Notes: a model not told the origin generated them from the letters alone. 64,000 nucleotides of DNA from an uncultured Candidatus Saccharibacteria bacterium (GCA_964525315.1 CAZGGJ010000004.1:5675-69674), one strand, 5' to 3'. Positions 719 to 46,360 are shown, counted from the first letter of the stretch. Translations and numbers: made by a program.

Positions 719-1771
719 ATGTCTATTAGCGCAAGAAGGTTATCTCGAGCTACAGCGCCTGAAGTAGACGATTTCATTCTTGGCGTCACGATTCCGGTGC
801 CGGGTGTGAACGTCGGCGTATATAGTGGTGTTGCGCGTACAACCTATAGCGGCCCGACGACGATTACGACGAATGGCACGACTATCCAGAACCAAAACAT
901 TACGCAGTATATCGACGTCAATGCCAAAGATGTCACATTTATAAACTGCTCCTTCTCGGCCGGCGGAGACCTATCGACGGGAGGCATGGTAAACTGTAAG
1001 TCAGCTACCTGCGAAAATATTCGTTTCTATCGCTGTACATTCATGCCAGCTACGATGAGCGACCGCCGAGACGCGGTCTACGGACACGACTATACGGCAG
1101 AACGCTGCCATATCGAGCGCACGGTTGACGGCTTTGCGGTCGCAAATCAGTACGCCGCAGCCGCCAATGTACACCTGCTTGGTAACTGGATTGGTAATCT
1201 CGCATGGTACAACGATGACCGCCAGGGCCAAGGCAACGGCGGGCATAACGATGGTACGCATAACGATGGCGTTCAAATCCACAGCGGCACGAATATTCAT
1301 ATCCAGGGCAACGCCTTTTATGGCTACAAGTTCAACGCGCTTGGCACGCCAGCACTAGATAGTTCTGCCGATAATCGCCATCCACAAATTGGTCAGATAC
1401 TGATGGCCAGTACGGCAGCGTATTATCACGTGGGCGATGTGCACTTCAATAGCAATTTCATATGGGGTGGAGACAATGGCGTCAAGACGTCGTCCAAGTG
1501 TTCTATTCATAACTCCTCAGATGCTGCGTTCGACCTGGAGTGCCGCAACAATACGTGGATGGACGACAACCAGCGTGACTACGGCTATACCTGGAAATTC
1601 TATCTTATCCGCACCGATAACCTAATGACTATTAACGGGCGCGGCCCTTTCACAACGTCGCCCGGGTCAGCAACCTACGACCTGGATGGCAACAAATGGT
1701 CGGCTACTTCGCCCGATGTCAGCCCAGCGCGGCGCGGCGCGGCAGTGTTTGTCCGGGCTGACCCCGCTTAG
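719..1771 (+). CDS. right-handed beta-helix (pectate-lyase-superfamily-like) protein with N-terminal ARRL tag
   Basis: 350-aa ORF. N-terminus is MSISARRLSRA. Beta-helix-type repeats are present (NITQYIDVNAKDVTFINCSF, HNDGTHNDGVQIHSGTNIHIQGNAF). No hydrophobic signal segment. Confidence 0.6.
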   Translation: MSISARRLSRATAPEVDDFILGVTIPVPGVNVGVYSGVARTTYSGPTTITTNGTTIQNQNITQYIDVNAKDVTFINCSFSAGGDLSTGGMVNCKSATCENIRFYRCTFMPATMSDRRDAVYGHDYTAERCHIERTVDGFAVANQYAAAANVHLLGNWIGNLAWYNDDRQGQGNGGHNDGTHNDGVQIHSGTNIHIQGNAFYGYKFNALGTPALDSSADNRHPQIGQILMASTAAYYHVGDVHFNSNFIWGGDNGVKTSSKCSIHNSSDAAFDLECRNNTWMDDNQRDYGYTWKFYLIRTDNLMTINGRGPFTTSPGSATYDLDGNKWSATSPDVSPARRGAAVFVRADPA

Positions 1772-1835
1772 TTTGGCGATAAAATAACGGTTCTGTATAA
1801 TAAACCATAAGTATCTATAGGAGGAAAGTAATCTA

Positions 1836-3050
1836 ATGGGAAGTCCAGGAGTAGGCGGGTCGCTCAGTGCAGCAAGTGACGTAGCGTTTAGTAGTCCTAC
1901 GAACGGACAAGTGATTACGCGTAGTGGTGGGTATTGGGTGAATGCAGACTCAGCTGGCGGTACGGCCGCTGCGACGAGCATTTTACAGATTGATGATTTT
2001 CCTGGTGCCAACGACAATGCCAAGCATGTCGCTGCGTGGGATGCTGCCAGGAATGCGACCCGCAAGCCGATATTACAGTATCCGGCGCGGACCTTTGGGC
2101 CGCTGACGACGCCAATCGCGGCGTTTTCGGGCATGCGGGCAATCGGACCGGACGCCAATGGAAGTGACGGGCCGAAAAACCAAGAAATTGGCGGCGGCAA
2201 CCTCGTGCCGCATAGAGTTAATGTGAACTGCGGCACGGGTACGTCAGCCTTGTTTGTCCAGTCCAGTACTATCCAGGAAGTTATTTTCGCCAACATTTCA
2301 TTTTCTGGCTCGTCCGGCTCGCAGTGGTGGCACAATGTCAACGGTAGTTCGTACTCGATTTATCCGGGGCTGTTTCATTCGCTATCGTTTGATGGGTTCA
2401 ATTCGGTCCTCGGCAACGCCGCGCAGAAGTTTACCGCCACCCAGGTCGTGTTCTCTGGGCACTGGACGGTGCTGAACTACCAGCTGACGCCGCTGCATAT
2501 CGGCGGGTCGGACAACTCGCTGTGGATGTCGGGGTATCTTAATTCCAACTCACCCGCAGGCGTGAGCGGCAATGGTAATCCTATCATTCACTTTGACTAC
2601 CTCGAGAAGTCTAATATCGGCTATATGTTTATTACCGCCGAAAACGATTGGCTAGGGATGCGCGTATCAGGGCCTATCGCTCGCGCTATAAGCGTATACG
2701 GCGGTACGTTTGAGGGTAGGGCCACTGGCAACCCGGCGACTCGGCCAGTGATTGATATCGCTGGCGGGCATGTCACGATGTATAGCCCGGATATCGGCTA
2801 TGTGACGACGGCCAATGGCGCGATTACCCAGTCCGCTGGCGTCTTGGAATGCTATAGTCCACACTACCGCAAAGCATCGGCTGCAGCTGCAACCTTCCCG
2901 ATGCTCTATCAGACTGGCGGCATTGCTCATATTACGCGGCCACTCAGCGCGGATGGCAATGCAATTCGCATTCGCTGGAAGGATGCAGCACTTGGTACTC
3001 AGGATGAGGATATCCCCTATCCCACAGGCAATAGCCGGGAGACCTGGTAA
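1836..3050 (+). CDS. MGSPGVGGSLSAASDVAFS-family protein (tail-fibre/tailspike-like), paralog of 12318..13568
   Basis: 404-aa ORF with RBS AGGAGGA at 1819-1825. The N-terminal about 40 aa are nearly identical to the 12318 product. Shared blocks include FSGHWT..N, GGSDN/GGADC..LW..GY and G.LN.N. Confidence 0.6.
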   Translation: MGSPGVGGSLSAASDVAFSSPTNGQVITRSGGYWVNADSAGGTAAATSILQIDDFPGANDNAKHVAAWDAARNATRKPILQYPARTFGPLTTPIAAFSGMRAIGPDANGSDGPKNQEIGGGNLVPHRVNVNCGTGTSALFVQSSTIQEVIFANISFSGSSGSQWWHNVNGSSYSIYPGLFHSLSFDGFNSVLGNAAQKFTATQVVFSGHWTVLNYQLTPLHIGGSDNSLWMSGYLNSNSPAGVSGNGNPIIHFDYLEKSNIGYMFITAENDWLGMRVSGPIARAISVYGGTFEGRATGNPATRPVIDIAGGHVTMYSPDIGYVTTANGAITQSAGVLECYSPHYRKASAAAATFPMLYQTGGIAHITRPLSADGNAIRIRWKDAALGTQDEDIPYPTGNSRETW

Positions 3051-5642
3051 ATGTCGCGATTTGTTCAGCGCCTGATGCGTGTCGCACACCCACCTGTGAC
3101 GCCGCCTGGCGGAACGAGCCCGACAGCTGATGCCGGCTCAGTGCCGGTCGGTACCGCGAGCTACACGGTGCCGGGCGATGCGATATATGTCGCGACGACT
3201 GGAAACGACACAACCGGCACCGGTGCTGCCGGGTCGCCATACCGGACACTGGCCAAAGGCATTTCGTCGGCCACAGCTGGCAAGACGATTGTTATGCGCG
3301 CTGGTACGTACCACGAAGGCGGCAGCAACCATACATCGGCTATCGGCCTAACTGTTACAAAAAACAATCTCACGATTCAGAATTATCCTGGCGAGGCCGT
3401 ATGGTTCGACGGTTCAAGTACACAAACCGGCTGGACACAGTCCGGCAGCACCTGGTACATCCCATGGACCAAGCAGTTCGACCACAGCCCGACAGCCACG
3501 AGCGGAGCCAACGATGGGACCGATGCTGGCTGGAAATGGATTAACGATAACTACCCATGCGCGCCATTCCCTGAGCAAGTGTTTGTCGACGGCGTGCCGC
3601 TGACGCAGGTAGGCTCGCTCGGCGAGTGCGTGGCCGGTACGCTCTTTGTTGACGGCACGACAGCGGGCAACAAAATCTTTACGCCAACACGTCTCTACAT
3701 TGGCACGAATCCTGCTGGCAAGACGGTCAACGTCACCGACCTGCATGTCTTCCTGAACCTTGGCCAAGGCTACACTAACCTAACGATTCGCGGTATCGGT
3801 ATTCGCCGCTACGGCAATGCTTTGCCGCAGTATGCTGTGCTGCGCTTTGACGGCAATAACAACACGACCAACTCGCTACTCGAAAACGTCGTCATCGAAG
3901 ACACGGCCGGCATTAGCGCAACGTCGAACCAATGCCATGGCAATACCTTCCGTCATATCACAGTGCGCCGGGCTGGCTACCGGGCACTCGGCGGCTATCG
4001 CTCCGACAACCTGACGTTCGACAAAGTCCTTATCGAATACGCTAATACTGAGAATTTCAACTCTAGCCCTGATTCCGGCTGTATCAAGGTGACACAGTCG
4101 CAGCACGTGACGCTCAGTAATAGCATCCTCCGCGACAGCAAGTGCAAGGGTATGTGGTTTGATATGTCGGTGTATGACATGAACGTCTATAACAATGACT
4201 TTCTCCGTCTCAAAGATACCTGCGCGTTCTTCGAAATCAGCGGTACTGGCATCTGCGCCAACAACCTCTTTGTTGACTGTCCATCTGAAGCCATCAAGGT
4301 CAACAACACCGACAACATGCAGGTCTGGAACAATACCATCGTCAATTGCGGCGCGCTCAGTCAGCGATTGACGCCCGATACGTCCAATCTGGGCAATGGT
4401 GACCGCCGCCCATTGGCCGTCTACCAAGAAAGCCGCCGTCCGGCTAATACTTCGTACGGACTGGATGGCCGCTATCCGCTGGGTCACGCCATGTACACCA
4501 CGTACATGACTTGGCAAATCAACGACATCGACATTCACAACAACATCGTTACCGATACACCGGCCAATGCCTACGCGATATTCTGCATCGACGACCAGCA
4601 GGTGCAGTCAGGTGGCGCCAACCAGCTCCTAGCAAGCTATGGTGTTAATATGACAGCTAATGTCTTTCATTGGACAACCGCTCCGACCACTACTTTCCCG
4701 TATCCCTATATCTTCCCGCCAACTACTGTTGGCAGCTCGACACCGGTCGTGTACTCAACGCACGCAGCGATGCGTTCGGCCACGTCGCTTAATGCAAATG
4801 GTGTCGAAATCAACGCCAAGGGTTCGGGCACGTCTAACGCATCACCAATCGATGCCAACTATGCAGTCACGACAGCCCAAGCGGCGCTTCATACGAGTGC
4901 CACCGCACTCAGCGGCACTATCGCAGCGCTTATCGGACAGTCAGCCGGTGCCAAACATGCGGGTGCTTGGCGCGGTGAAACCGAGACACCACCCAGTGAA
5001 GTACGAGAGATAGGCTGGATTGGCGACTCGCTGACGTACCAAGATAGTGGCAACGGACAGACGGCTATCAAGAATCTTCTCGTTGCCGGAGGATGGCAGA
5101 ATACCAATAGCACTCGTGTCGATGGGCTGGTTGGCCGGTCGATTATCAATGGCGTCGCTCCGTATATTCCGAGTTCACAGACGGTGATAGACACCTGGCG
5201 GGCGGATGGATTCAATCCGCGAACCTGGTGTTTTGCGCTGGTGACGAATGACGAGTGGGACACCGATAGCGGCTGGACGAATAAAGTCAACACGCTACTC
5301 GCCAAAGTAAAGGAAGTGCCACATAGTAGTGGTTTGCCATATCGCATCTTCTGGGTCGGCGGACCTATCTATCGGCAAGATATCGCCGATGCTAATAGTC
5401 CGACGTATGCCAACCGCGCTACAAGGTTCGCGGCCGTCATGGCATCGATTCGTACTGCGCAACTGGCGGGCGGGCAGATTGGCGAAATGACCTATATCGA
5501 CTTCCCGGCGCTTTATCGCAATGGCAGGGACGAAACCGGACACTGGCAATCAGGCGACTCAACCGGCCGCCACATGACTGCCACCGGCTACGGGGTTCGC
5601 AATACACTCACCGTACCCTTGGTCACGCCGCCGGGCAATTAG
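3051..5642 (+). CDS. large beta-helix (DUF1565/pectate-lyase-like) protein fused to a C-terminal SGNH/GDSL hydrolase domain; ARRL-type tag variant
   Basis: 863-aa ORF abutting the stop of the previous gene. N-terminus is MSRFVQRLMRV. The signature GTASYTVPG.AIYVATTGNDT..G....PYRTL...., TIVMRAGTYHEG, LTIQNYPGEAVWFDGS and IRGIGIRRYG is shared with the 22686, 24688, 27584 and 39604 products. GDSL block I (IGWIGDSLTYQDSG) has GDS at nt 5022-5030. Confidence 0.7.
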   Translation: MSRFVQRLMRVAHPPVTPPGGTSPTADAGSVPVGTASYTVPGDAIYVATTGNDTTGTGAAGSPYRTLAKGISSATAGKTIVMRAGTYHEGGSNHTSAIGLTVTKNNLTIQNYPGEAVWFDGSSTQTGWTQSGSTWYIPWTKQFDHSPTATSGANDGTDAGWKWINDNYPCAPFPEQVFVDGVPLTQVGSLGECVAGTLFVDGTTAGNKIFTPTRLYIGTNPAGKTVNVTDLHVFLNLGQGYTNLTIRGIGIRRYGNALPQYAVLRFDGNNNTTNSLLENVVIEDTAGISATSNQCHGNTFRHITVRRAGYRALGGYRSDNLTFDKVLIEYANTENFNSSPDSGCIKVTQSQHVTLSNSILRDSKCKGMWFDMSVYDMNVYNNDFLRLKDTCAFFEISGTGICANNLFVDCPSEAIKVNNTDNMQVWNNTIVNCGALSQRLTPDTSNLGNGDRRPLAVYQESRRPANTSYGLDGRYPLGHAMYTTYMTWQINDIDIHNNIVTDTPANAYAIFCIDDQQVQSGGANQLLASYGVNMTANVFHWTTAPTTTFPYPYIFPPTTVGSSTPVVYSTHAAMRSATSLNANGVEINAKGSGTSNASPIDANYAVTTAQAALHTSATALSGTIAALIGQSAGAKHAGAWRGETETPPSEVREIGWIGDSLTYQDSGNGQTAIKNLLVAGGWQNTNSTRVDGLVGRSIINGVAPYIPSSQTVIDTWRADGFNPRTWCFALVTNDEWDTDSGWTNKVNTLLAKVKEVPHSSGLPYRIFWVGGPIYRQDIADANSPTYANRATRFAAVMASIRTAQLAGGQIGEMTYIDFPALYRNGRDETGHWQSGDSTGRHMTATGYGVRNTLTVPLVTPPGN

Positions 5643-5671
5643 GCAACCGTCGTTACAGCAGAAAGGACACT

Positions 5672-6454
5672 ATGCTTGCCAGAAGACTACAACGAGCGGC
5701 GACTGCATCTACGCCTGAAGAGCCGGGCGGATTCGTGCCGAACCTCATAAATAACCCGCACCTGGGCGGCTATCCTGATGCCACGAATACCGGTGTGCCG
5801 GCAGGCGTCACACTCACTAACAGCGGACCTATCACCGTTACTACCAACGGTGCCGTTATCCAAAACCTCAATATCGTCAACGGCAATATCACTGTCAATG
5901 CCAACAACGTAACGATTCGCAACTGCCGCATCACTACCTATGACTATTATCCGATTGACAATGGCGGTACGAACCTCTTGGTCGAAGACTGCGAAATTAC
6001 CGGCACTGACCCGAATGTGGCGGCAGCAATTAGTTTTTCTAATTACACCGCTCGGCGTGTCCATGCAAAGGGCAGTGCCGATGGCTTCAAGGCCAATGCC
6101 AACTGTGTAATTGAGGATTGCTACATCCATGACCTGGCTGTCACGCAAGATTCGCACAACGACGGCATCCAGTCAACCGGTGGCGATAACGTGACCGTAC
6201 GGCACAATACTATCGATACCAATACCGACGGCGTCGCTATCCAGTTCGGTTCAAGTAATACCGGCTGGCTGGTGACGAACAACCTGGTGCGTGCCACTGG
6301 CTGGGCATTCAACGGCGGCAGCGGCACATCGAACTGTACGTTTACGAACAACCGCTTCGCCCGCGTGTCTGGCTGGTACGGCCCTGCCTCCTTGGGCGGC
6401 TCCGGCAACACCTGGAGCGGCAATATCTATGATGATACGGGCAGCCCAGCCTAG
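5672..6454 (+). CDS. small right-handed beta-helix protein with shortened ARRL tag
   Basis: 260-aa ORF. N-terminus is MLARRLQRAA. Motifs: GAVIQNLNIVNGNITVNANNVTIRNCRIT, DCEITG, HNDGIQSTGGDNVTVRHNTI. Confidence 0.6.
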   Translation: MLARRLQRAATASTPEEPGGFVPNLINNPHLGGYPDATNTGVPAGVTLTNSGPITVTTNGAVIQNLNIVNGNITVNANNVTIRNCRITTYDYYPIDNGGTNLLVEDCEITGTDPNVAAAISFSNYTARRVHAKGSADGFKANANCVIEDCYIHDLAVTQDSHNDGIQSTGGDNVTVRHNTIDTNTDGVAIQFGSSNTGWLVTNNLVRATGWAFNGGSGTSNCTFTNNRFARVSGWYGPASLGGSGNTWSGNIYDDTGSPA

Positions 6455-6456
6455 CA

Positions 6457-6480: not shown

Positions 6481-6507
6481 ACGCCGATACCTACAACTAG
6501 TTTCTCC

Positions 6508-6540: not shown

Positions 6541-6578
6541 AGAAGTAACATAACCACAAGCATCTATGGAGTAGCCAC

Positions 6579-7415
6579 ATGCCACGATTACCACAACCAG
6601 GAGGAGACCAAGGTAACTGGGGCCGAATTCTCAACGACTACCTCTCCCAGGCTCACAAATCAGACGGAACCCTAAAGGACAATATTGTCTCGGCCCCTTC
6701 CATTACTAACAACACCATTACCGAAGACAAGCTTGATACGGCTGTCCGTTCCAAGCTCAATAGCGGTGGTGGTACACAAGGAGCAACTGGACCACAAGGT
6801 CCGCAGGGTGTGCAGGGGCCGGCAGGTATCGCGGGCCAAATGGGTGCGACGGGTCCGCAAGGCCCAGCTGGCGCACAAGGCCCTGCAGGCTCTGTTGGCG
6901 CAACCGGGGCGACCGGTGTTGGTACTCCTGGGGCGACGGGTGCGACAGGTCCACAGGGTAATCAAGGTTCCGCTGGGCCTCAGGGCGCCACTGGTCCTCA
7001 GGGGTCGGCAGGAGTAGTCGGTGCAACTGGGCCAACTGGGACTGCAGGTGCTTCTGGTGCAACTGGTCCTCAAGGGGCCACTGGTCCTGCTGGCGTCGAT
7101 GCCGATGCACTTATTCCTACGAATATACAAACCGGCTCATACACACTTGTTCTTGCCGATGCCGGTAAAGCGATTGACGTCAACTCGGCGTCAGCCACCA
7201 CTATGACTGTTCCGCCAAATGCCAGTGTGGCCTTCCCAGTCGGTACGGTTATAGAAGTGTGTCGTTATGGTACGGGCACTGTTGCCGTCGCCGCCGGGGC
7301 GGGTGTGACGATTCGGTCGCGTGGTTCGTTGATGTCTATCGCGGCTCAGTATAGTTCGGTATCGCTACGCAAGCGGGCGATTGATGAATGGATACTAGTC
7401 GGAGACCTTAGCTAA
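6579..7415 (+). CDS. collagen-like (Gly-X-Y) fibre protein, short form
   Basis: 278-aa ORF with RBS GGAG. N-terminus is [23 protein letters not shown]. Aa 65-172 are about 36 Gly-X-Y triplets. The globular C-terminal domain is shared with the 13722 product. Confidence 0.8.
6771..7094 (+). repeat. Gly-X-Y triplet-repeat coding region
   Basis: GGN-NNN-NNN periodicity ([16 protein letters not shown]...). It generates spurious long ORFs in the other five frames. Confidence 0.85.
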
Positions 7416-7771
7416 TGGCAGCAGTACATCATATTGCACGGCGTGGCCAGATGCAGTATCCTACCATCGCACAGGCTATGGTACAGGCTCATTACCGAGT
7501 GAATCTCGGTAATGTTGCGAGCTCACACCGCTTCCGTGCTCGCTCAACTGACCGCACTGAGCTAGTTATCGTCAACAATTCCGGTGGCGAGCTTCAGCTT
7601 GGCTCGCGTACTACCGATAACCCTGACTATAACTCGCCTTCAACATGGCCTTACACGGTACCAGATGGGAGTGAAGCCGTTATCACTGGCGATACACTGC
7701 AGTGGTACGCGCGCCGAACTGACGGCACCGGAGATATTTTTGTCGATGTGTATGTCAAGGAGATTGCGTAA
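7415..7771 (+). CDS. small conserved protein (118 aa), possible fibre accessory or chaperone
   Basis: The ATG overlaps the upstream stop (TAATG) and its own stop overlaps the next ATG (TAATG). Paralog of 14561..14917 (shared NSPSTWPY.VP.GSE.VIT.DT.QWYARR.DGT.D.FVDVYVKE.A). Confidence 0.6.
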   Translation: MAAVHHIARRGQMQYPTIAQAMVQAHYRVNLGNVASSHRFRARSTDRTELVIVNNSGGELQLGSRTTDNPDYNSPSTWPYTVPDGSEAVITGDTLQWYARRTDGTGDIFVDVYVKEIA

Positions 7772-8982
7772 TGGCCGTTACTGTTCGTTCTGCTCAGACA
7801 CGTAACCCCAGAGTATGGCTCGAAAACGTTACGACTGCAGCAAGTGATTATAAGCCGGTATATATGAGCCATGACCGCACCACCTTGTATGCGGTCAACG
7901 GTGGAGCGAATGACCGAACGCTTCACAAAAGCACCGACGACGGTGCTACCTGGACGGTTATCTTTACTGCTCCGCAGGCAAGCGAGAAGGTGACAGCATG
8001 TCTCGAGCTGTCAGATGGCAGGATGCTCGCGGCAACCTATCTTTTTGCCCAGCGACCACGACTTTATCGGTCAAGCCTTGCCGGCGGTGGCGGTACGTGG
8101 ACGCAAGTGTTTGAAAATAACGGTGTACTCAGTCAGCTCCATCCGTATTGGGGACTAACAGACCGGGGCTTCGATGGTAACGGCCACCTGTGGTTTAGCG
8201 AATATGGCGCACAGACCACTACTTCCGGTAGTCAGTCCGACAAAGCTCGGCGTATTTGGCGCAGTGTCGATGACGGCTCTTCGGCAACACCGATGTTCGA
8301 TATCATAACGTATGCTGAAACGGTGCGCGGTCTCACTGTCCCTGCTCAGACTGGCGGAGTGCATATGCACGCCGTTGCCTACGATAAGTGGGACGACCGA
8401 GTGTGGTTTACGATGGGAGATAACGTCGGTGCTGGTCCAGATATCGTTGTAGGCGGCCAGACAGGGACGAACGTTCAAATTGGTTATACTGATGATAGCT
8501 TTGCGACTGTGAACTGGTTGCCAGCTCCTACGTTCTGGGGAAATACGAAGGAGGCGCTGCAAGTGGTTGGCATCATGCCGCTTGAACATGCAGTTGTATT
8601 CAGCCCAGACGGAGTGGTGAATAGCCCGATTATTTTACCGCGCCGTGGCTACCGGACGTATGGCCCGCTCAAGGCTGGGTCGTATAACGGACTCCGTCAA
8701 GGCTATGGCTCGCTCGGCCAAGGCTTGTTCCAAGCCTGGAATCGTCCTGACCTTCCGGCATTAATGGCGATTGGCATGCCTGTGAGCAACTTCGGCCAGG
8801 CCGCAGCTGGATTATTCGCCGGCCTTGATGGCGGCTTGACGTGGGAGGAGTTGTACCGATTCACGACAGGAGCTCAAATTTCTGTTGGCGGCCTTGTCGG
8901 ACCGACAGTGAACGGCAAGGTTTTGACCAGCTTTAATGACGGTGCCGCCAAGCTGTTTATAGCAGACTTGGTTACGGCTTAG
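7771..8982 (+). CDS. BNR/Asp-box repeat beta-propeller (sialidase-like fold) protein
   Basis: 403-aa ORF. Asp-box motifs: KSTDDGATWT, RSVDDGSS, GLDGGLTWEE. Paralog of 14917..16113. The N-terminus MAVTVRSAQTR resembles a degenerate ARRL tag. Confidence 0.6.
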   Translation: MAVTVRSAQTRNPRVWLENVTTAASDYKPVYMSHDRTTLYAVNGGANDRTLHKSTDDGATWTVIFTAPQASEKVTACLELSDGRMLAATYLFAQRPRLYRSSLAGGGGTWTQVFENNGVLSQLHPYWGLTDRGFDGNGHLWFSEYGAQTTTSGSQSDKARRIWRSVDDGSSATPMFDIITYAETVRGLTVPAQTGGVHMHAVAYDKWDDRVWFTMGDNVGAGPDIVVGGQTGTNVQIGYTDDSFATVNWLPAPTFWGNTKEALQVVGIMPLEHAVVFSPDGVVNSPIILPRRGYRTYGPLKAGSYNGLRQGYGSLGQGLFQAWNRPDLPALMAIGMPVSNFGQAAAGLFAGLDGGLTWEELYRFTTGAQISVGGLVGPTVNGKVLTSFNDGAAKLFIADLVTA

Positions 8983-9001
8983 AAAACGGACAGAAGAACT
9001 A

Positions 9002-14561: not shown

Positions 14562-14917
14562 TGGCAGTACTGCATAGTATGCGGCGAGGCACTATGCAAT
14601 ACCCTGCCGCCACTCCGCAGCTTATGATGACGGCGCACTACAGGGTAAACCTTGGGTATGCAAATAACACGAATCGTGTACGTACACGTTCGGCCGACCG
14701 GCGCGAACTAATTATCGTTAATACGTCGGGTGGCGATATCGAACTGGGAACCCGTACGCAAGATAATCCAGATTTTAATTCGCCCTCTACCTGGCCTTAC
14801 CAGGTGCCAGCGGGTAGCGAAGTAGTAATTACAAGCGATACCACTCAGTGGTATGCCCGCCGCATTGATGGTACGACAGATGTTTTTGTTGATGTCTATG
14901 TCAAGGAGGTGGCGTAA
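14561..14917 (+). CDS. small conserved protein, paralog of 7415..7771
   Basis: The ATG at 14561 overlaps the collagen gene stop (TAATG), exactly as in the first module. The track ORF start at 14534 lies inside the upstream gene and is unlikely. Confidence 0.6.
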   Translation: MAVLHSMRRGTMQYPAATPQLMMTAHYRVNLGYANNTNRVRTRSADRRELIIVNTSGGDIELGTRTQDNPDFNSPSTWPYQVPAGSEVVITSDTTQWYARRIDGTTDVFVDVYVKEVA

Positions 14918-16113
14918 TGGCGCTTTCTGTCCGTGCAGCCCAGGTGCGTGCTCCGCGTGTACGACTAGACAATGTGAACATTGCCGCGAGCCCCTATAGG
15001 CCAATATATATGAGTCGCGACCGTACGACCGTGTATGCCGCTAACGATAAAATACTTGCCAAAAGCACTGATGACGGCGCCACATGGACAGATATCTTCA
15101 CGACGCCGCTGAGTAACGAACCCATCACGGCGTGTCTAGAGTTGCCCGACGGCCGACTGCTGGCGGCTGCTTGGCGGTTTAACCAAGCCCCCAGAATATA
15201 CCGCTCAAGCCTACCAGGCGGTGCTGGCACTTGGACCAATATATTTCAAAATACTGGTGTGCTTAGTCAATTTCAGCCATTTTGGAGCCTTACCGACTCA
15301 TGTTTTGACGGCAATGGCCATCTGTGGCTGAGTGAGTATGGCGCGCAGACGACTACTTCCGGCGACCAGAGTGACAAAGGAAGGCGCATCTGGCGTGGCA
15401 ACGACGATGGTTCGTCGTTTACACCAATGTTTGACTTACTCACTTATGCCGAAACAGTACAGGGCCTGACTGTTCCAACCCAGACTGCCGGTCTTCATAT
15501 GCACGCAGCTGCCTACGATAAATGGGATGACCGCGTGTGGTTTACGATGGGCGATGATGTTGGTGCAGGGCCGGACGTAGTAACGGGTGGTTCGAGCGGT
15601 TATAACGCTGAAATTGGCTATACCGATGATAATTTTGCGACGGTCAATTGGCTGCCACTGCCTGCATTCTGGGGAAATACTAGAGAGGCAGTGCAAGTCG
15701 TCAGTATTTTACCCCTAGAGAACGCCGTCATATTTGCTGCGGACGGTAAGCCAAATGGCATACTGGTCTTGCCGCGACGGGGCTATCGCACGTATGGGTC
15801 ACTGAAGGTGGGGCCGCATAATTCAGTCCGTCATCTGTATGCCTCATTAGGTCAAGGCTTGACGCGCGCCTGGAACCGGCCTGACTTGCCAGCACTTGCG
15901 GCAATTAGTTTGCCTGCTACAAGCAGCCAAGGCGCTGCCGCATTGTTCGCCGGTCTTGATGGTGGGTTAGCGTGGGAAGAGCTCTATCGCTTTCAAACTG
16001 GAGTCATCACTACCCTCGGCGGCTTTGTCGGGCCGACAGTAAACGGCAAAGTAGTGGCATCGGTCAACGACGGCGCGGCCAAAGTGTTGACGGCTGATTT
16101 GGTGATAGTTTAG
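14917..16113 (+). CDS. BNR/Asp-box beta-propeller protein, paralog of 7771..8982
   Basis: 398-aa ORF with a TAATG overlap to the upstream gene. Motifs: KSTDDGATWT, GNDDGSS, GLDGGLAWEE. Confidence 0.6.
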   Translation: MALSVRAAQVRAPRVRLDNVNIAASPYRPIYMSRDRTTVYAANDKILAKSTDDGATWTDIFTTPLSNEPITACLELPDGRLLAAAWRFNQAPRIYRSSLPGGAGTWTNIFQNTGVLSQFQPFWSLTDSCFDGNGHLWLSEYGAQTTTSGDQSDKGRRIWRGNDDGSSFTPMFDLLTYAETVQGLTVPTQTAGLHMHAAAYDKWDDRVWFTMGDDVGAGPDVVTGGSSGYNAEIGYTDDNFATVNWLPLPAFWGNTREAVQVVSILPLENAVIFAADGKPNGILVLPRRGYRTYGSLKVGPHNSVRHLYASLGQGLTRAWNRPDLPALAAISLPATSSQGAAALFAGLDGGLAWEELYRFQTGVITTLGGFVGPTVNGKVVASVNDGAAKVLTADLVIV

Positions 16114-16144
16114 GTATACTAGGGAGAGAGAAAGGAGGGATAGC

Positions 16145-31914: not shown

Positions 31915-32772
31915 TTACAGCGCCGAAAGCGGCTTATACCATATCCAATCGACTGACATTTGCGCCGGGAAGTCGCTGGCTTGTGGAGCCGGTAGCCAGC
32001 TAGGTGCAACAGCAAAATTGGTAATGTAGTACATCGGCTGCTGGAAGTGCTGGTTCCAGATACCTGGCGCCATATCCGAGGGACCCCAGTCGCCAATCTG
32101 AATCTGGTCGACACCGACCCGGATACGGTCGGGCTCCCATAGCAACCAGTAGGTGCGATAACCCAGGTTTGAGTCGGTACTATTCACATCGTTATCGAGG
32201 TCGTTGCCATTATTGTTAGTGTACATATGGCTCGCGTAGTTCGACGAGTTGCCGAATTGCTCTATAATGTCGAACTCGGCGTAGTAGTCGCTAGTATTGT
32301 AGCCAACAAGCAGCATCCAAAACGCCGGAAACCAAGCACGGCCGACGCTGCCCTGCGACCGCGGCATCTTGATGCGTGCCGCACACCAGCCGTACTGCAT
32401 GGCAAAGCGCTGGCGCGAAGTGAAGCGGCCTGAGTAGATAGTGCTGCCGGGCCGCGTGGCCTCCATGACTGCATGACCGCTGCCGTCGAGATACATATTG
32501 GCGTCCTGATACACCTGCGTGCCGCCTTGGTTGATGGTATCGCGCTGCCACAAGCGGTTGTCGAGAGTGGTACCGTCGAAGTGGTCCCATACTTCGTTGG
32601 TTGCAAGGCGCGTATAGTCAAATTGACCGGAAGTGCCGACCATCGGGCCGTCAGGGGCAGGGGACGTGCCGGTGGGTGGGCTGGCCAGCATCAGCGCCGG
32701 GAGCGGGTCGCCGGAAGAACCGCCATTTGGCGGCCGCGAACCTTGCTGAAGCCGTCTCGCAAACCTGCTCAT
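31915..32772 (-). CDS. glycoside hydrolase family 16-like (beta-glucanase fold) with ARRL tag
   Basis: 285-aa ORF and the only island gene on the minus strand. N-terminus is MSRFARRLQQG. The GH16 catalytic motif E-x-D-x-x-E is present as AEFDIIEQ, and a WPAFWML block is also present. Confidence 0.65.
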   Translation of the reverse strand: MSRFARRLQQGSRPPNGGSSGDPLPALMLASPPTGTSPAPDGPMVGTSGQFDYTRLATNEVWDHFDGTTLDNRLWQRDTINQGGTQVYQDANMYLDGSGHAVMEATRPGSTIYSGRFTSRQRFAMQYGWCAARIKMPRSQGSVGRAWFPAFWMLLVGYNTSDYYAEFDIIEQFGNSSNYASHMYTNNNGNDLDNDVNSTDSNLGYRTYWLLWEPDRIRVGVDQIQIGDWGPSDMAPGIWNQHFQQPMYYITNFAVAPSWLPAPQASDFPAQMSVDWIWYKPLSAL

Positions 32773-34051: not shown

Positions 34052-34495
34052 ATGAGTCAATTTGCCCGCCGCGCCCAGCGCGCTTCACCGCCACAAGGCG
34101 CACGCCTCTATATCACTCCGGCATCCGGGTCGTATAGCAATGGCAGTACTGTCACTGTCACAATCATGGAAAACAGCTACGCGGATGCAGTCAACGCCGT
34201 CCAAGCAAACTTGACCTACCCAACCAACCGCTTGACCTTCCAGTCGATTAGCACCACGAATAGTAATTTCACAACCACTATCCAAAGCGAAGGTGGCAGC
34301 GGTACGGTGCAGGTCGGCGTCGGCTTGCTTGGCAATACGCTTACTGGAGCGCAAGAAGTTGCTCGTGTTACCTTCACGGCAAACGGCACTGGCTCGGCAG
34401 CCATCAGTTTCGCGGCGGGTTCCGGTATTGCGCGCGCGAGCGACTCGACTGATATCTGCCAGCAACAAAGCGGAGCTACCTATACCATTACGTAG
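34052..34495 (+). CDS. single cohesin-like domain protein with ARRL-type tag
   Basis: 147-aa ORF. N-terminus is MSQFARRAQRA. The pattern LYITPASGSYSNGSTVTVTI....VNAVQANLTYPTNRLTFQSI....GTVQVGVG.....EVARVTFTANGTGSAAISF fits a cohesin-type beta-sandwich. Confidence 0.45.
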   Translation: MSQFARRAQRASPPQGARLYITPASGSYSNGSTVTVTIMENSYADAVNAVQANLTYPTNRLTFQSISTTNSNFTTTIQSEGGSGTVQVGVGLLGNTLTGAQEVARVTFTANGTGSAAISFAAGSGIARASDSTDICQQQSGATYTIT

Positions 34496-39595: not shown

Positions 39596-39603
39596 AATAC
39601 CCC

Positions 39604-41283
39604 ATGAGTATAACAGCACGGCGTTTGAGTAGAGCGACACAGGAAGTTACGAGTGGTTGGCCGCAGCTTTCAGCGCAGCGGGGTGCATTGACGATTGGTA
39701 CGGCGAGTTACACAATTCCTGGCAGTGCTGTGTATGTCGACTCGGCAAGTGGCTCGAACAGCAATAGCGGCACACTCAATTCACCATACCAAACAGTCGC
39801 CTATGCCACGTCACAAGTTGCCGCGAACGGTACGGTTGTCTGCCGTGCTGGCGTGTATCATGAACAGTTCGAGCATACGCCTAGCGACAATGCCTGTACG
39901 GTGATGAATTATCCTGGCGAGGAAGTCTGGTTCGACGGCTCGGTCGTTGTTACGAGTTGGACGCAAAATGGCTCGACATGGGTGCATAACGGCATTCCAA
40001 CGAAATTCAATCATACCACTAGTGCCGGCTGGGCAGATTATCCGAATTTTCTGCAGGGCGATATGTACGCCGGCCTGTCCGACCAGGTATTTTATGATGG
40101 GGCTCGTTTGACGCAAATCGCCGATGGTGCAACACCCAGTGCTGGACAATTCTCGGTAAATTACACCGCAAATACTATCACCATAGGCTCTAACCCGAAT
40201 GGTCATGAGGTGCGCGTCTCTGACCTGCGCTACCTAGTGATTGCTTCGCAGCGCATCTCATGGAAGGGAATTGGTGTGCGCCGCTACGCTCCCGACAAGA
40301 CCAGTGATGTCGGCGCCCCATTTTACTACGGTGGCAGTTCAGCTGGCTCCAGCTTTGAAAATGTCGTCGTCAAGCAGTCATCAATTGCCGGCTGGGCACT
40401 GAACAAGCCAAATATGACGCTGCGTTACTGCACTGCCGAAGACAATATGCATACTGGCATCGGCGGTTCGTACTGCGATGGCCTTGTGGTGGATTCGTGT
40501 GCCATGCAGAACAACAACGTCGGCAAGTTCAAAGCACAACCAACCACAGCAGGCATAAAAATCACCGACTGCCTTGGCGTGACAGTCAGTAATTGTTACG
40601 TCGTGGACAATACGGGCGGTATGGGCATATGGTTTGACGTGTCGTGTGTCAAAGTAAATGTGCTGCACAATTACATTAAAGGCGCACACTACGACGGTAT
40701 CACGATGGAGCTAAGTGCGGGCGGCTATATCAGCGGGGTGCAGTACCGAAGCATTGTAGCCGGCAACTACATAGATGGTGCGCAGTTCGGTATCGGTTGT
40801 CTGGATAGCAGCTACACCGATATCTACAACAATACGTTTATCAACTGCACCTCGGCTGATATTATGATGCAGCGTGATGACCGTCCGCTCAATACCGGCA
40901 ACAAAACACGCACGCTTGCCGAATGTTCCTGGGATACGACCTATAACACGAATGTTAACAATATTTTAGGGCCGTGTACCATTCCGATTCGTGTCTTTGA
41001 TAGCAACAATAACCGCAGCGCCGATGTCATGTACAACGAAGTTCGCAACAATACCATCACGAAACTATCGGGTGGGATTATCCAATGGGGCAATGCCAGC
41101 AATAGCTACACGACCTACAATACGCCAGCAGCATTTCAGGCTGCCGTGCCAAGTTTGTCGAGTGGTAATATTCAATCGGCCACTATTGACCACACCCAGG
41201 CGTTTGGCGTGCCAGCTCACGTAGCAAATGCGCTCGGGGTTGCATCTAATACGAAGCGTATGGGGGCGTGGGTTAATTCGTAA
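39604..41283 (+). CDS. beta-helix (DUF1565/pectate-lyase-like) protein with ARRL tag
   Basis: Start chosen at MSITARRLSRA (ATG 39604); the track start 39520 overlaps the upstream gene. Motifs: GTASYTIPGSAVYVDSASGSNSNSGTLNSPYQTV, TVVCRAGVYHEQ, NYPGEEVWFDGS, WKGIGVRRYAP. Confidence 0.7.
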   Translation: MSITARRLSRATQEVTSGWPQLSAQRGALTIGTASYTIPGSAVYVDSASGSNSNSGTLNSPYQTVAYATSQVAANGTVVCRAGVYHEQFEHTPSDNACTVMNYPGEEVWFDGSVVVTSWTQNGSTWVHNGIPTKFNHTTSAGWADYPNFLQGDMYAGLSDQVFYDGARLTQIADGATPSAGQFSVNYTANTITIGSNPNGHEVRVSDLRYLVIASQRISWKGIGVRRYAPDKTSDVGAPFYYGGSSAGSSFENVVVKQSSIAGWALNKPNMTLRYCTAEDNMHTGIGGSYCDGLVVDSCAMQNNNVGKFKAQPTTAGIKITDCLGVTVSNCYVVDNTGGMGIWFDVSCVKVNVLHNYIKGAHYDGITMELSAGGYISGVQYRSIVAGNYIDGAQFGIGCLDSSYTDIYNNTFINCTSADIMMQRDDRPLNTGNKTRTLAECSWDTTYNTNVNNILGPCTIPIRVFDSNNNRSADVMYNEVRNNTITKLSGGIIQWGNASNSYTTYNTPAAFQAAVPSLSSGNIQSATIDHTQAFGVPAHVANALGVASNTKRMGAWVNS

Positions 41284-41314
41284 TGCATGACGAGGCAAGA
41301 GGGACTGAAGCAAT

Positions 41315-42616
41315 ATGAGTAGATTTGCACGCCGACTACAGTATGCAGCCTCTTCCGTGCGGCGCTATCCGGGCTATTTGCCGCCGTTTTTGACACGTCC
41401 AACCGGAACTGATTATGTACGCTATGAAGACTTGGTCCAGGGAGGTGATGCGGTCACAGTGACGACAGTGGGCACGCAACCTGTCTATCAATTCGGCGCT
41501 GGCGTATTCCAGACTATCATTGAACGGTGTCCGGCAAACAAATGGATGACATTTCCGGCGGGCGTCTTTGAAATTAATTCTCCAGGCTGGACGATTGGCG
41601 ACAACGCCGCCTGTCAGTGGCCCAAGACGTCCTACGGCGCTATCGGTAATTGTCCACCCGGAACTGGGTGGGATGACCTCGCGCCCGACAACCAGCGGAC
41701 GGTATTCCGGGTGAAGGCAAATACTGCCCCGAGCAAAAACGTGGCCGGCGCATGGTTCAGGATAGGATATAGTGGCTCGGTAAAGCAGTCGTGGGCCAAT
41801 ATTCATTTTGAAGGCACCGACCAAGGCATGCAAGTATCGGGCGATACGGGCAACAATAGTGGTCCCGGCAATGACGGCACCTCACGGCGTTTGTTTACAA
41901 ATGCCTTTTTCTGGAATGTGGCTGATAATTCCAATGCTCGCGATATCTTGTCAACAGGGAATTTCGGCAATAACGGAGCTCCTCCCGGTGAAACATTCGG
42001 TTTTCAGTGGTATCACTCTACTAATCCCGTACTATGTCGCATTTATGTGGATGGCCGCCGCATGGCGGGCGGGCCTATTTATTCGGCGGCTGGTATTACC
42101 TTTGGCAACACGCTCGGCGGCATCCTGACCGATAGCTGGACACATCACAATGGGCAGGCAGGTGTGGTTTTCTTCCAAACGGCAAATTGCGTCAGTTATG
42201 GCTGCCGGCTAGGTGACCCAAGCGACCACACGACGAATCATGTCAATGGCAAGGCGAATGGCGATTGGCTCAATCATGAGCGGAGTACTGGCAATGTCCA
42301 TACTGACATGAACCTCCATGTCTACAGCGTCGGCAAAGCACAGGGCGAGCATGTTTCGCATTCCAATGATAGCTGGACGCTGTCTCGCTCCGGACAGGAT
42401 ATCCCAGTTGATAATGGTACGGTGAAGTTTATCAACCAGACACACTCGCAGATATTATTTGGCGGTTCTGGGTATCCACTGACTATCGCGACATGGGTGC
42501 CGTATTGGACAGGCAATACCATGCAATCCAGTAATAGGCCTATTATCGTTGCCGCTGACGGCATAACGCCAGTGGCCGCAAAGTGGAACTTCGGAGGGAC
42601 ATGGCTAGATGTGTAA
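41315..42616 (+). CDS. ARRL-tagged protein of unknown function, paralog of 42638..43813
   Basis: 433-aa ORF. N-terminus is MSRFARRLQYA. Shared blocks: YVRYEDL.Q.GD, FP.GVF, G.NGAPPGETFG, VDGRR....YSAAGIT.G, HHNG.A..VF. Confidence 0.55.
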   Translation: MSRFARRLQYAASSVRRYPGYLPPFLTRPTGTDYVRYEDLVQGGDAVTVTTVGTQPVYQFGAGVFQTIIERCPANKWMTFPAGVFEINSPGWTIGDNAACQWPKTSYGAIGNCPPGTGWDDLAPDNQRTVFRVKANTAPSKNVAGAWFRIGYSGSVKQSWANIHFEGTDQGMQVSGDTGNNSGPGNDGTSRRLFTNAFFWNVADNSNARDILSTGNFGNNGAPPGETFGFQWYHSTNPVLCRIYVDGRRMAGGPIYSAAGITFGNTLGGILTDSWTHHNGQAGVVFFQTANCVSYGCRLGDPSDHTTNHVNGKANGDWLNHERSTGNVHTDMNLHVYSVGKAQGEHVSHSNDSWTLSRSGQDIPVDNGTVKFINQTHSQILFGGSGYPLTIATWVPYWTGNTMQSSNRPIIVAADGITPVAAKWNFGGTWLDV

Positions 42617-42637
42617 AGACGTAAGGAGCAGTAATAT

Positions 42638-43813
42638 ATGAGTATCGCCGCACGACGACTAATGAGGGCGCCAGCCGTTACGAGCGACCGTCCGACAGGT
42701 CCGGGGTATGTCCGCTATGAAGATTTGTACCAGCCTGGCGATTCAGTAGGCGCGGCCCTCAATCGCCTCGCGACACCAGCCATTGTGACCTTCCCAGAAG
42801 GGGTGTTCCTGCTCAATGGGTTTCAGTATTATGGCGGTGCCATTGACTGCAAAAAAACAATGGTGCGCGGTATCATTGGCTCTGGCTCGGGAACATTGTT
42901 CGACGAAAGCCGTGGTACGATTTTCAAGATGGTGCCAAATAGCTCGTCGTTCGTCAAAGGTACGTCACCAGAAACACCTACCCAGGCGCAGGGCGGCACG
43001 ACCCAGGTATGGGTAATTCGCTGCGTCGGTGCCGAGGGGGATGTACGGTTCGAAAACTTCCAAATAGTTGGCACCGAACAAGGGCACAACTACAACGGCC
43101 TCTATGCCTACCATGTTCAGGGAAGTACGACGATAAAAAATGTCAAAGTATCGGGAGTGGCTGGCGATAACGGCGCTCCTCCGGGTGAAACATTTGGCAT
43201 CTCGGCGTATCAGGGCAATATGGGCACCACAGTTATTGAAAACTGCGAAGTCGACGGCAGGCGTAGCGGTGCAGCTGGTTCCTCGTGGTATAGCGCAGCA
43301 GGGATTACCAGTGGGCAATCTATTGGTGCGACCATTCGTGGGTGCCATTCTCACCATAACGGTGCTGCGGCGTTTGTGTTCTATCGCGCGTTTGACGGAG
43401 TATTCGAAAATAACATTTGCGGCACGACCGACCCGGCAGCCCACGCCACGACCAATTTGAGGGGCTGGGGCGTTAATCAGGAAGAAACGGCCGGGATTGT
43501 GCACAAAAACTGCACCTATCGCCACGGTGCGGTCAACCAAGGCGTGCATATTTCACACTCTAACACCAATCGGTCGTTCCAGTATACCGGCTGGCCATCG
43601 CGTTCGGTGGTTGATGGGAGCCTTAAGGTCGTCAACCCGACATTCACAGATATATGGGGTAATAATTATTTTTACATTCAGTCATGGCTCACTGGTGTAG
43701 ATGGCACGAGCAATAACGATTCGATGGTGACGCCGCCGCTCGTCACACTGACTGACGGTGTGACTCACCTGCCATACAAATGGGCGCATGGCCCGACGCA
43801 GACTGTAACGTAA
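42638..43813 (+). CDS. ARRL-tagged protein of unknown function, paralog of 41315..42616
   Basis: 391-aa ORF with RBS AAGGAG. N-terminus is MSIAARRLMRA. Confidence 0.55.
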   Translation: MSIAARRLMRAPAVTSDRPTGPGYVRYEDLYQPGDSVGAALNRLATPAIVTFPEGVFLLNGFQYYGGAIDCKKTMVRGIIGSGSGTLFDESRGTIFKMVPNSSSFVKGTSPETPTQAQGGTTQVWVIRCVGAEGDVRFENFQIVGTEQGHNYNGLYAYHVQGSTTIKNVKVSGVAGDNGAPPGETFGISAYQGNMGTTVIENCEVDGRRSGAAGSSWYSAAGITSGQSIGATIRGCHSHHNGAAAFVFYRAFDGVFENNICGTTDPAAHATTNLRGWGVNQEETAGIVHKNCTYRHGAVNQGVHISHSNTNRSFQYTGWPSRSVVDGSLKVVNPTFTDIWGNNYFYIQSWLTGVDGTSNNDSMVTPPLVTLTDGVTHLPYKWAHGPTQTVT

Positions 43814-43829
43814 TAAAGAGGAAGAATAT

Positions 43830-45122: not shown

Positions 45123-45129
45123 GTAGCCA

Positions 45130-45138
45130 TGATACAAT
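45130..45138 (+). promoter_or_regulatory. extended -10 (TGATACAAT) 7 nt upstream of ATG 45146; candidate leaderless promoter
   Basis: TG is at 45130-45131 and TACAAT at 45133-45138. No Shine-Dalgarno sequence. Confidence 0.4.
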
Positions 45139-45145
45139 CATAAGC

Positions 45146-46360
45146 ATGAGCATCGCAGCACGACGGCTACAGCGAGCACGGCTGGCATCGCAGTCGTACC
45201 AAGGTACGAGCAACGGCCCCTTGGGCTATCGCATCAGTGAAATGTTCGGCGGTGATGGCAATGGTTCGTGGATTAATACCCCGATGCCAGCCAACACAAG
45301 CGTCCACGCGGATTCAGCCACGGCAGTTGCTGACCTCTGTTATAACATCTACGAAAAGGCCACAGGTACGAATGTCGCTGCTTGGCCGATTATCAATGCT
45401 GGCAACTATTGTGCCACTATCAATGTTATCCCGCACGGCACGCCGTTGGTAAAAGTATGGTCAAGCGAACTTCCGCAGCACTGGAATGACCCCAGTAAGT
45501 GGTCGGGCCATGCCATGCAGTATGACGGCTTTCCGATACCGGAGGGCCTAGAGCCAACCAACGACTCGGACGGCACCATCTTCCTCTATGACCCCGACTG
45601 GGAGTGGCCTGGCCGTCCAGGCGACCCGCAGTACAAGGGGCGGGTATATGAGCTATGGGGCGCACAGTCACCAGAACAAAACGTAGCCAATGGACTTCCG
45701 GCACGCTGGACGGCGAAGTATCCGGGGCGACTATCCGGCGTGAACAATCGTCTCACTGGGCATCCTGTCAACCGGACTACCGGTGATGCGCTGAGTACCG
45801 CCATGCCAACCTTTACGGCGCCCAAAGCACCCAATGACACCTCGGCCAATACTGGCTATGTAGGATATGGCCGGGATGGTGTCGCCGAACACTCTGGTAT
45901 GATGGCGAGTGCGTCGCACATCCCGATGAGCCACACGCAGATTCGAATATCTGATGTAGTGAAGGGTGTCATTAATCACCCGCTGGGGTTTGCGCTTTTC
46001 GGCTATGATGGGTCGCCAAAAGGCTACGTGTGGCCGGCAACCGGGTATGATGGCGCCAGTCGACCGTGGATGAAGCATGGCAATCGGTTCCGGCTCCCAG
46101 CCAGCTATACTGCGACCTATCCGGCAAATATGCCTGTCGCGTGGCGTCCTTGGTTCGATATGTTTATCCAGTGTTTCAAGGACTACGGCGTGATGCTAGT
46201 AGATACCACAGGCAACTCATTTGCGCTTCGTGGTGAGCCAGGAGTACAGAATTATTATCCTGCCGGTTTCAATAGCAATACGTTCATCAAGTACTTACCG
46301 TGGGCCGATATGGAAATGCTCGTTGTAGGGAATGATAATGAGTTCTACCCTTCCGCATAG
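45146..46360 (+). CDS. ARRL-tagged protein, paralog of 9002..10225
   Basis: 404-aa ORF. N-terminus is MSIAARRLQRARLA. Collinear similarity with the 9002 product over the full length. Confidence 0.55.
   Translation: MSIAARRLQRARLASQSYQGTSNGPLGYRISEMFGGDGNGSWINTPMPANTSVHADSATAVADLCYNIYEKATGTNVAAWPIINAGNYCATINVIPHGTPLVKVWSSELPQHWNDPSKWSGHAMQYDGFPIPEGLEPTNDSDGTIFLYDPDWEWPGRPGDPQYKGRVYELWGAQSPEQNVANGLPARWTAKYPGRLSGVNNRLTGHPVNRTTGDALSTAMPTFTAPKAPNDTSANTGYVGYGRDGVAEHSGMMASASHIPMSHTQIRISDVVKGVINHPLGFALFGYDGSPKGYVWPATGYDGASRPWMKHGNRFRLPASYTATYPANMPVAWRPWFDMFIQCFKDYGVMLVDTTGNSFALRGEPGVQNYYPAGFNSNTFIKYLPWADMEMLVVGNDNEFYPSA

Follow-up and report, generated by a model that had tools for sequence, protein, structure and literature searches.

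Several described systems mark many unrelated surface or secreted proteins with a short, lineage-restricted motif. In the PEP-CTERM/exosortase and LPXTG/sortase systems and the C-terminal domain signals of the type IX secretion system, the motif is C-terminal, usually comes with a transmembrane segment, stands alongside a general secretory (Sec) signal and has a known partner enzyme. Here we describe a motif that, in contrast, is N-terminal and soluble and stands in place of a Sec signal. This 11-residue peptide, hereafter the tag, has the consensus M-[SA]-I-[SA]-A-R-R-[LFM]-Q-R-[AVG] and begins fifteen open reading frames (ORFs) in a 64,000-nucleotide stretch of DNA (the window) from an uncultured Candidatus Saccharibacteria bacterium (GCA_964525315.1 CAZGGJ010000004.1:5675-69674). 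The tag is under selection at the peptide level, is restricted to one lineage, is carried by extracellular-type domains and occurs without an accompanying hydrophobic segment. The reading that we favor, tentatively and as one that could well be wrong, is that it may be a targeting peptide, peculiar to this lineage, by which host-glycan-degrading proteins are exported without Sec or displayed on the surface.

Among N-terminal signals, those of the twin-arginine translocation (Tat) pathway resemble the tag in lying at the extreme N-terminus, in carrying an arginine pair (RR) preceded by small or polar residues, in being basic and in occurring on extracellular enzymes; unlike the tag, which consists of 11 conserved residues, they have x-F-L-K after the RR, a hydrophobic h-region and an A-x-A-bearing c-region. 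The basic n-regions of Sec signals are also short, positively charged and Met-proximal, and a look-alike n-region occurs in the window at gene 46460, but Sec n-regions are far less conserved and are followed by an h-region, found in 0/40 tagged proteins. In multi-spike phages, such as the anchor-branch receptor-binding protein (RBP) systems of Klebsiella phages, short conserved N-terminal peptides dock secondary depolymerases. These share with the tag a short N-terminus, a linker, swappable glycan-degrading domains and paralogs beside fiber genes, whereas the tagged genes are dispersed among the housekeeping genes of a cellular chromosome, viral contigs lack the tag, and its cargo extends to small glycoside hydrolases that are probably monomeric. 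N-terminal loading peptides exist as well, namely the encapsulation peptides of microcompartments and the cargo signals of extracellular contractile injection systems. Like the tag they are short, of helical propensity, joined by a flexible linker to unrelated cargo, and a structural partner recognizes them; however, the window showed neither shell nor contractile-sheath genes, and the cargo here comprises polysaccharide hydrolases rather than metabolic enzymes or toxins. The tag falls within the broad class of short peptides for sorting or docking, while departing from every specific class against which it was tested.

A conserved N-terminal peptide on fifteen ORFs

The tagged ORFs of the window are listed below. 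Every N-terminus that the first-pass annotation of this DNA had reported was found at its coordinate on a translating main ORF.

719..1771, plus strand: tagged ORF MSISARRLSRA; weak beta-helix match
3051..5642, plus strand: tagged ORF with divergent tag MSRFVQRLMRV; Beta_helix/DUF1565/NosD
5672..6454, plus strand: tagged ORF with shortened tag MLARRLQRA; Beta_helix
9002..10225, plus strand: tagged ORF MAISARRLQRV; Saccharibacteria-only family, no assigned fold
16145..17377, plus strand: tagged ORF MAISARRLQRA; GH5 cellulase-family domain, with orthologs in other Saccharibacteria tagged too
22686..24680, plus strand: tagged ORF MSIAARRLSRA; beta-helix, weak PelN-like match
24688..27540, plus strand: tagged ORF MSIAARRMQRV; PKD + DUF1565 + beta-helix
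27584..30538, plus strand: tagged ORF MSIAARRMQRV; PKD + beta-helix, paralog of 24688
31915..32772, minus strand: tagged ORF MSRFARRLQQG; GH16
34052..34495, plus strand: tagged ORF MSQFARRAQRA; 147 residues, all-beta, cohesin-like label unconfirmed
39604..41283, plus strand: tagged ORF MSITARRLSRA; Beta_helix/NosD, weak Gp53-like tail-fiber C-terminus
41315..42616, plus strand: tagged ORF MSRFARRLQYA; no family match
42638..43813, plus strand: tagged ORF MSIAARRLMRA; Beta_helix
43830..45122, plus strand: tagged ORF MSIAARRFQRG; no family match
45146..46360, plus strand: tagged ORF MSIAARRLQRA; paralog of 9002

A six-frame scan of the window for the core [AR]RR[LMFA][QSM][RQY] returned 15 ORF starts, with the core 4-5 residues past the Met in each; the remaining matches were the signal peptide of gene 46460 and two unrelated minus-strand sites only. 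A 31-nt degenerate DNA pattern of the strict consensus had 4 sites in the window versus 0 in 100 shuffles. Most tags are preceded by an in-frame stop 0-20 codons upstream, so that translation there does not start further upstream. For 24688 and 39604, the longest ORF starts at an upstream GTG that overlaps the previous gene, and the tag ATG is the sensible start to prefer.

The mean pairwise identity of the 40 nt upstream of the tagged ORFs was 27%, which is the random level, and that of the tag itself was 58% over the 33 coding nt and 66% over the peptide. Moreover, 405 of 573 same-residue codon pairs (71%) used different codons. The unrelated upstream DNA and the differing codons indicate that selection acts on the peptide and not on a DNA repeat, as the varied codons had suggested at first pass. 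A DNA-repeat or recombination-cassette origin of the tag is ruled out by the same data. Also ruled out is a lineage-wide liking for MSI starts, since only 4 of 172 untagged ORFs begin in this way.

Position counts were taken from 53 unique tags. The Met (53) is followed by S (38) or A (12) at position 2, I (45) at position 3, S (24) or A (20) at position 4, A (44) at position 5, R at positions 6 (52) and 7 (51), L (33), F (9), M (4) or H (4) at position 8, Q (43) at position 9, R (48) at position 10 and A (29), V (13) or G (7) at position 11, where conservation ends sharply. The net charge over the first 12 residues is +3 in 48/53 tags, and acidic residues occur in 0/53. The small residue at position 2 predicts removal of the initiator Met and hence a defined new N-terminus. 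Over residues 12-35, Pro is enriched 1.8-fold and Gly and Ser 1.3-fold, with Lys, Cys, Trp and Asp depleted, which points to a flexible linker. The 9002 protein was modeled with AlphaFold2 from a 16-sequence alignment (mean predicted local distance difference test score [pLDDT] 79); in the model, residues 1-16 have a pLDDT below 50, residues 5-10 form a short helix and the tag segment does not pack against the domain; in this predicted structure the tag is detached from the domain that follows it.

The tag drifts among orthologs. Members of the 9002 family carry MAISSRRLQRA, MSLSARRFQRG, MGIAARRTQRT, MSLSGRKMTRT or MAGRRSQRT, and GH5-family orthologs carry MTISVRRLQRA, MAISTRRFQRA or MALSARRLQQA. 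Some orthologs have other N-termini: P0018 has one of a second class (MTVRVTSLRATS) and P0024 a long repeat extension. In the deposited gene calls P0001, P0005, P0011, P0013, P0022 and P0025, the start is placed at an internal Met and the tag is missing. The locus DNA of P0005 and P0013 contains the tag in frame, upstream of the deposited start (L051 9932 and L053 7322 are among the loci), so that the tag corrects the annotation of at least two checked homologs; such internal starts may partly explain why the motif was overlooked.

The first-pass annotation placed the tag on mutually unrelated domains of extracellular type, and Pfam bears this out. Specifically, Beta_helix/NosD/DUF1565 matches were obtained for 719, 3051, 5672, 22686, 24688, 27584, 39604 and 42638, GH5 for 16145, GH16 for the minus-strand ORF at 31915-32772 and PKD for 24688 and 27584; five tagged proteins of the window had no Pfam match. 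The 9002 family comprises 18 clusters, all from Saccharibacteria-like contigs, and shows conserved synteny with dnaK/dnaJ/grpE. A Foldseek comparison of the 9002 model with the PDB gave nothing significant, the weak top matches being MltA, expansin and cerato-platanin with E above 0.3; these three are double-psi beta-barrel wall-active proteins. The cohesin-like label of 34052 was not confirmed: Pfam was null, a lone PDB sequence match was weak (E=0.036) and a single-sequence AlphaFold model had a pLDDT of 44. Two genes downstream of 34052, beyond a membrane protein at 34519-35319, lies a dockerin type I protein with a Sec signal (35297-35962). If 34052 were a cohesin, this pair would argue for an extracellular location of tagged proteins.

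Known N-terminal signals and the distribution of the tag

A hydrophobic segment, defined as a 12-residue Kyte-Doolittle mean of >=2.0 within the first 60 residues, was present in 0/40 unique tagged proteins from the window and its relatives, compared to 48/172 untagged ORFs. Genuine signal peptides at the same loci reach Kyte-Doolittle values of 2.1-3.7, and ordinary signal peptides are present on other surface proteins of the tag-bearing genomes. Without an h-region in any of the 40 proteins, or a conserved small-x-small site past residue 11 in the 53 tags, the tag does not qualify as a Sec type I signal. In the same two samples, the missing h-region and A-x-A site speak against a Tat signal; the near-invariant RR of the tag (R6 52/53, R7 51/53) has Ala before it and [LFM]-Q-R after it. 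These results agree with two statements made at first pass, that no h-region follows the tag and that the tag is neither a Sec nor a Tat signal. In a 2018 comparative study, only one of the analyzed Saccharibacteria genomes had a complete Tat system (PMC6031116).

Three further classes were rejected. A prepilin (class III) leader would have a hydrophobic helix, which is missing past the tag, in contrast to the FTIVE pilins nearby in L017. For a double-glycine leader, GG falls within residues 8-35 in only 16/53 tags and its position is not fixed. A phage-encoded RBP docking peptide shares with the tag a conserved N-terminus on interchangeable enzymatic C-terminal domains, but viral contigs contain 0 tags, structural phage genes were not found among the window proteins scanned and the neighbors of tagged genes elsewhere are housekeeping genes.

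We scanned one genome per species, for 185,579 bacterial and archaeal species, with the tag DNA pattern and obtained 29 loci. In 14 of these the tag begins an ORF of at least 100 residues. Thirteen of the 14 are labeled Candidatus Saccharibacteria or Saccharimonas, and the fourteenth, L015, is labeled "uncultured bacterium." Together with L018, a Saccharimonas locus with the tag on a 76-residue ORF, the true tagged loci represent 10 metagenome-assembled genomes (MAGs) or genomes; the other loci are short or out-of-frame chance matches, in about the number expected from a rough information-content estimate. The same pattern found six further real loci in metagenome contigs and 0 matches in 2.9 million viral contigs, and 76 viral loci with related collagen fibers (1.07 Mb) contained no tag. 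The tagged ORF of L027, from a Ca. Saccharibacteria MAG (JAPUET01) of a lab-scale reactor, matches 43830 at every one of its first 50 residues. This match and the Candidatus Saccharimonas homologs of 46460 place the window in a Saccharimonas-like genome. A tag-profile search of 1.84 billion representative proteins, in which independent tags score only E 0.04 to >10, listed three matches at E <=0.001, of which two are fragments of window-like proteins and the third is a repeat artifact.

In the other genomes, the tagged genes belong to the ordinary chromosomal complement and are dispersed among housekeeping genes; they adjoin dnaK/dnaJ/grpE/hrcA, truB, rpsT/holA and murB, whose products are untagged. 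Pfam assigned 25 tagged proteins of these genomes to GH12, GH71, GH5, DUF4082, GDSL esterase, PKD, beta-helix/NosD and Sortilin/BNR-like propeller families, with no cytoplasmic family among the 25. As far as these sequence searches reach, the tag is a lineage-wide feature of environmental Saccharimonas-like Candidatus Saccharibacteria genomes, beyond this window. No model in Pfam, NCBIfam or PHROG covers residues 1-15 of any tagged protein and our full-text literature search found no description of the motif, which agrees with the earlier statement that no described family is known to carry it. The tag is thus real, statistically solid and lineage-restricted, and no description of it was found.

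Fiber modules and gene 46460 in the tagged island

The tagged genes of the window are interspersed with the following genes, the last of which adjoins them.

6579..7415, plus strand: collagen-like fiber without signal peptide; C-terminal domain matches phage minor-tail/tail-fiber families
7415..7771, plus strand: 118-residue protein directly after the fiber gene; paralog at 14561-14917; no family match
7771..8982, plus strand: BNR-like protein with degenerate tag MAVTVRSAQTR, an N-terminus of the second class
14917..16113, plus strand: BNR-like paralog with degenerate tag MALSVRAAQVR
18475..20847, plus strand: GDPD protein with degenerate tag MAVALRAAAAG
46460..48529, plus strand: beta-propeller/CE2_N protein; tag-like n-region MSSFRRRLQQ, then a genuine Sec signal peptide

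Paralogs of the collagen-like fiber lie at 10321, 13722 (13722-14561), 17485 and 33021, and all five fibers share the N-terminus MPRLPxPGGDxGNWG and lack a signal peptide. Compared with PHROGs, the C-terminal domain of the 6579 fiber (residues 173-277) matched phrog_8780 (3.6e-29), 21510 and 18179; 1836 also matches a tail-fiber PHROG. The 118-residue protein is a candidate fiber chaperone or adaptor. Fiber, 118-residue protein, BNR-like protein (MAxxVRxAQxR) and tagged enzyme form a four-gene module that is found at 6579-10225 and 13722-17377 and again in a related Saccharimonas genome (L053 4926-8539), and that looks like a functional unit. The degenerate N-termini noticed earlier on the BNR and GDPD proteins are indeed present, and they recur in relatives (L027, L053, P0018). 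Upstream of the 46460 gene the island occupies ~46 kb in the window compared to ~9 kb in L053, where the 46460 ortholog is 85% identical; thus, the island is hypervariable and strongly expanded in this genome. Composition is uniform along the window. Mid-island, at 30698-31846, lies an AAA_14/DUF4143 ATPase with neither signal peptide nor tag, the only clearly cytoplasmic-type gene there.

The true signal peptide that had been assigned to 46460 is of Sec type. Indeed, all 120 best matches listed, which include Candidatus Saccharimonas and many Actinomycetota, carry ordinary, varied Sec signals ending in A-x-A|DT(A/Q)P, and a swap between tag and signal peptide was found in none of them. Among these 120, only the three closest relatives have the tag-like n-region, which weakens the evolutionary link between tag and signal n-region at which the first-pass annotation had hinted from this gene. 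Homologs that are 40-45% identical occur in the Actinomycetota Actinomadura, Nakamurella and Jatrophihabitans. Actinomycetota is the phylum of the known Saccharibacteria hosts, and transfer of 46460 between host and epibiont is possible.

Export, docking and other readings of the tag

In the targeting reading, the tag, with its flexible Pro/Gly/Ser-rich linker, would mark glycan-degrading enzymes and beta-helix or adhesin-like proteins for exit from the cytoplasm by a route independent of the Sec/Tat hydrophobic core. The destination would be the cell surface or the host-contact zone, and once outside the tagged proteins would attach to envelope polysaccharides, whether of the bacterial host or of its surroundings, and cleave them, as phage depolymerases do. 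A short invariant N-terminus with a linker, unrelated cargo, the exclusion of Sec and the confinement to one lineage are together the signature of a targeting tag with a dedicated partner, and we infer that tagged proteins leave the cell and that the tag is the element recognized. Several points weigh against this. Export is read solely from the domain types, and the finding that the tag is never on cytoplasmic proteins covers ~65 tagged proteins and ~170 untagged neighbors rather than whole proteomes. No transporter or receptor gene consistently adjoins the tagged genes at the ~20 loci inspected. The fiber-like island proteins without signal peptides start differently (MPRLPxPGGDxGNWG, MGSPGVGG..., MSATLSNN...), so that the tag would not be the sole ticket out if they are exported. 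Moreover, known type IV secretion system (T4SS) signals are C-terminal or internal and not N-terminal, and the module of fiber, 118-residue protein, BNR-like protein and tagged enzyme fits docking at least as well.

Patescibacteria depend on an essential T4SS, a relative of the conjugation systems of monoderms, for which the studies consulted name no substrate (PMC12857230, PMC12102498), which makes it an attractive but speculative candidate for the machine. That the tag is the signal of a new Saccharibacteria export route, or marks the missing substrates of this T4SS, has a real chance of being true, though it is not likely. If the T4SS reading were true, the tagged hydrolases and beta-helix proteins would be effectors that open the host envelope and feed on it.

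The tag could instead be a docking or assembly peptide that plugs the enzymes into a common scaffold, for which the phage-like collagen fibers, the 118-residue proteins, the BNR propellers, a pilus and the cell wall are candidates. Export would then occur by other means, and such a function is compatible with a targeting role; we regard it as the main live alternative, though not a likely one. The island resembles a phage receptor-binding arsenal (the 6579 fiber with phrog_8780, 1836 with its tail-fiber PHROG and 39604 with its Gp53-like C-terminus), and the recurrence of the module, twice in the window and again in L053, also speaks for docking. So do the shortness and flexibility of the tag, its linker and the several N-terminal classes on swappable C-terminal domains (P0018, P0024), as in modular phage RBPs. 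However, in L008, L037, L011 and L048 the tagged genes stand singly or in runs with no fiber gene within 4-10 kb, and neither the 1.07 Mb of fiber-carrying viral contigs nor the whole viral collection contains a tag. In addition, monomeric GH5, GH12 and GH16 enzymes are atypical as fiber-borne spikes, no scaffold partner was identified and a way out of the cell would still be needed. That the island is a prophage or encodes a phage-derived particle, with the tagged proteins as tailspikes, is very unlikely. Collagen-like tail-fiber homologs, beta-helix depolymerase-like proteins, the GDPD protein and weak BNR_2/sialidase-like matches do recall phage arsenals, yet the window proteins scanned with Pfam and PHROGs, which were most of the ORFs that do not run off either end, included no product of a capsid, terminase, portal, tape-measure, baseplate or lysis gene. 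The uniform composition of the window, the scattering of tagged genes among housekeeping genes elsewhere and the lack of tags in 2.9 million viral contigs also argue against it.

Two other explanations were weighed. TatC or SecA might read the tag as the RR motif or basic n-region of a degenerate signal, completed by a later weak hydrophobic stretch or by a partner. The RR pair after small residues loosely recalls S/T-R-R-x-F-L-K, similar n-regions stand on ordinary signals (MSSFRRRLQQ plus h-region in 46460; ...SIARRGTMLGVAAAF... in 50476), and Ala/Gly/Val/Thr-rich stretches follow the tag in 719, 22686 and 42638 (maximum Kyte-Doolittle 1.6-2.0). Nevertheless, we consider this explanation distinctly improbable. 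None of the 40 tagged proteins reaches the hydrophobicity of genuine signal peptides and in many, such as the 9002 family and 43830, the sequence past the tag is clearly polar; there is no A-x-A or conserved position past residue 11, and [LFM]-Q-R is not x-F-L-K. Furthermore, Tat was reported absent from all but one of the analyzed Saccharibacteria genomes (PMC6031116), and the 120 listed members of the 46460 family include none with the tag only. The tag might also serve inside the cell, either as a site at which a chaperone, an inhibitor or a protease acts to keep harmful hydrolases inactive or as a translation or stability element, with the enzymes released by cell lysis. The lack of an identified export machinery is consistent with this, as are the predicted Met loss with its defined N-terminus and the absence of signal peptides from all fiber-like proteins of the island, which recalls lysis-released phage structural proteins. 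However, nine successive residues kept across unrelated cargo and genomes exceed what stability or translation needs, MSI starts are rare in untagged ORFs (4/172) and conservation at the nucleotide level is lacking. Lysis release of ~15 or more enzymes would be costly for a genome of ~1 Mb, and lysis and phage structural genes were not found among the window proteins scanned, making an intracellular role unlikely.

Saccharibacteria and other Patescibacteria attach to other bacteria and draw resources from them. The 11-residue rule provides a ready list of candidate effectors and adhesins in any Saccharimonas-like genome, and the tag is a handle for reporter fusions and pull-downs directed at the machine or scaffold that reads it. 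If secretion is indeed its function, the tag would represent a new class of signal without a hydrophobic core.

Directly abutting the fiber/tag island are six or seven proteins with Sec signals at 50476-58035, among which are two weak WxLIP (peptidoglycan-binding-like) domains and one PKD domain. The Pam pili of Saccharimonadia are Sec-dependent and chaperone-usher-like, and the pam operon consistently has a "tail fibre-like protein," a CorB-like gene and a major facilitator superfamily (MFS) transporter nearby (2026 preprint, doi 10.64898/2026.03.03.709456). PDB sequence searches with 50476 and 55763 gave no matches to Pam pilins; the cluster at 50476-58035 may be a Pam pilus operon. A tagged 9002-family member stands beside an MFS gene in L048 and beside a CNNM/CorB-type gene in L051, which is suggestive of a common host-contact neighborhood.

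Finally, the paralogous proteins at 21239-22663 and 38177-39595, with the N-termini MSATLSNN and MTAILSNN, end in ...(I/V)PHLGWGR(R/Q)x. The tagged beta-helix proteins 24688, 27584 and 39604 have similar C-termini (...[HR]-[IMV]-G-A-[WF]...), and 22686 has a looser ...LMGAR...; these termini may represent a common docking or processing motif. Scans of the window for Rfam families and tRNAs gave no matches. At its far end, an ORF of at least 832 codons (~61500-64000, plus strand, frame 3) is open to the window end, and the short minus-strand ORFs over the same ~61500-64000 interval are probably spurious.

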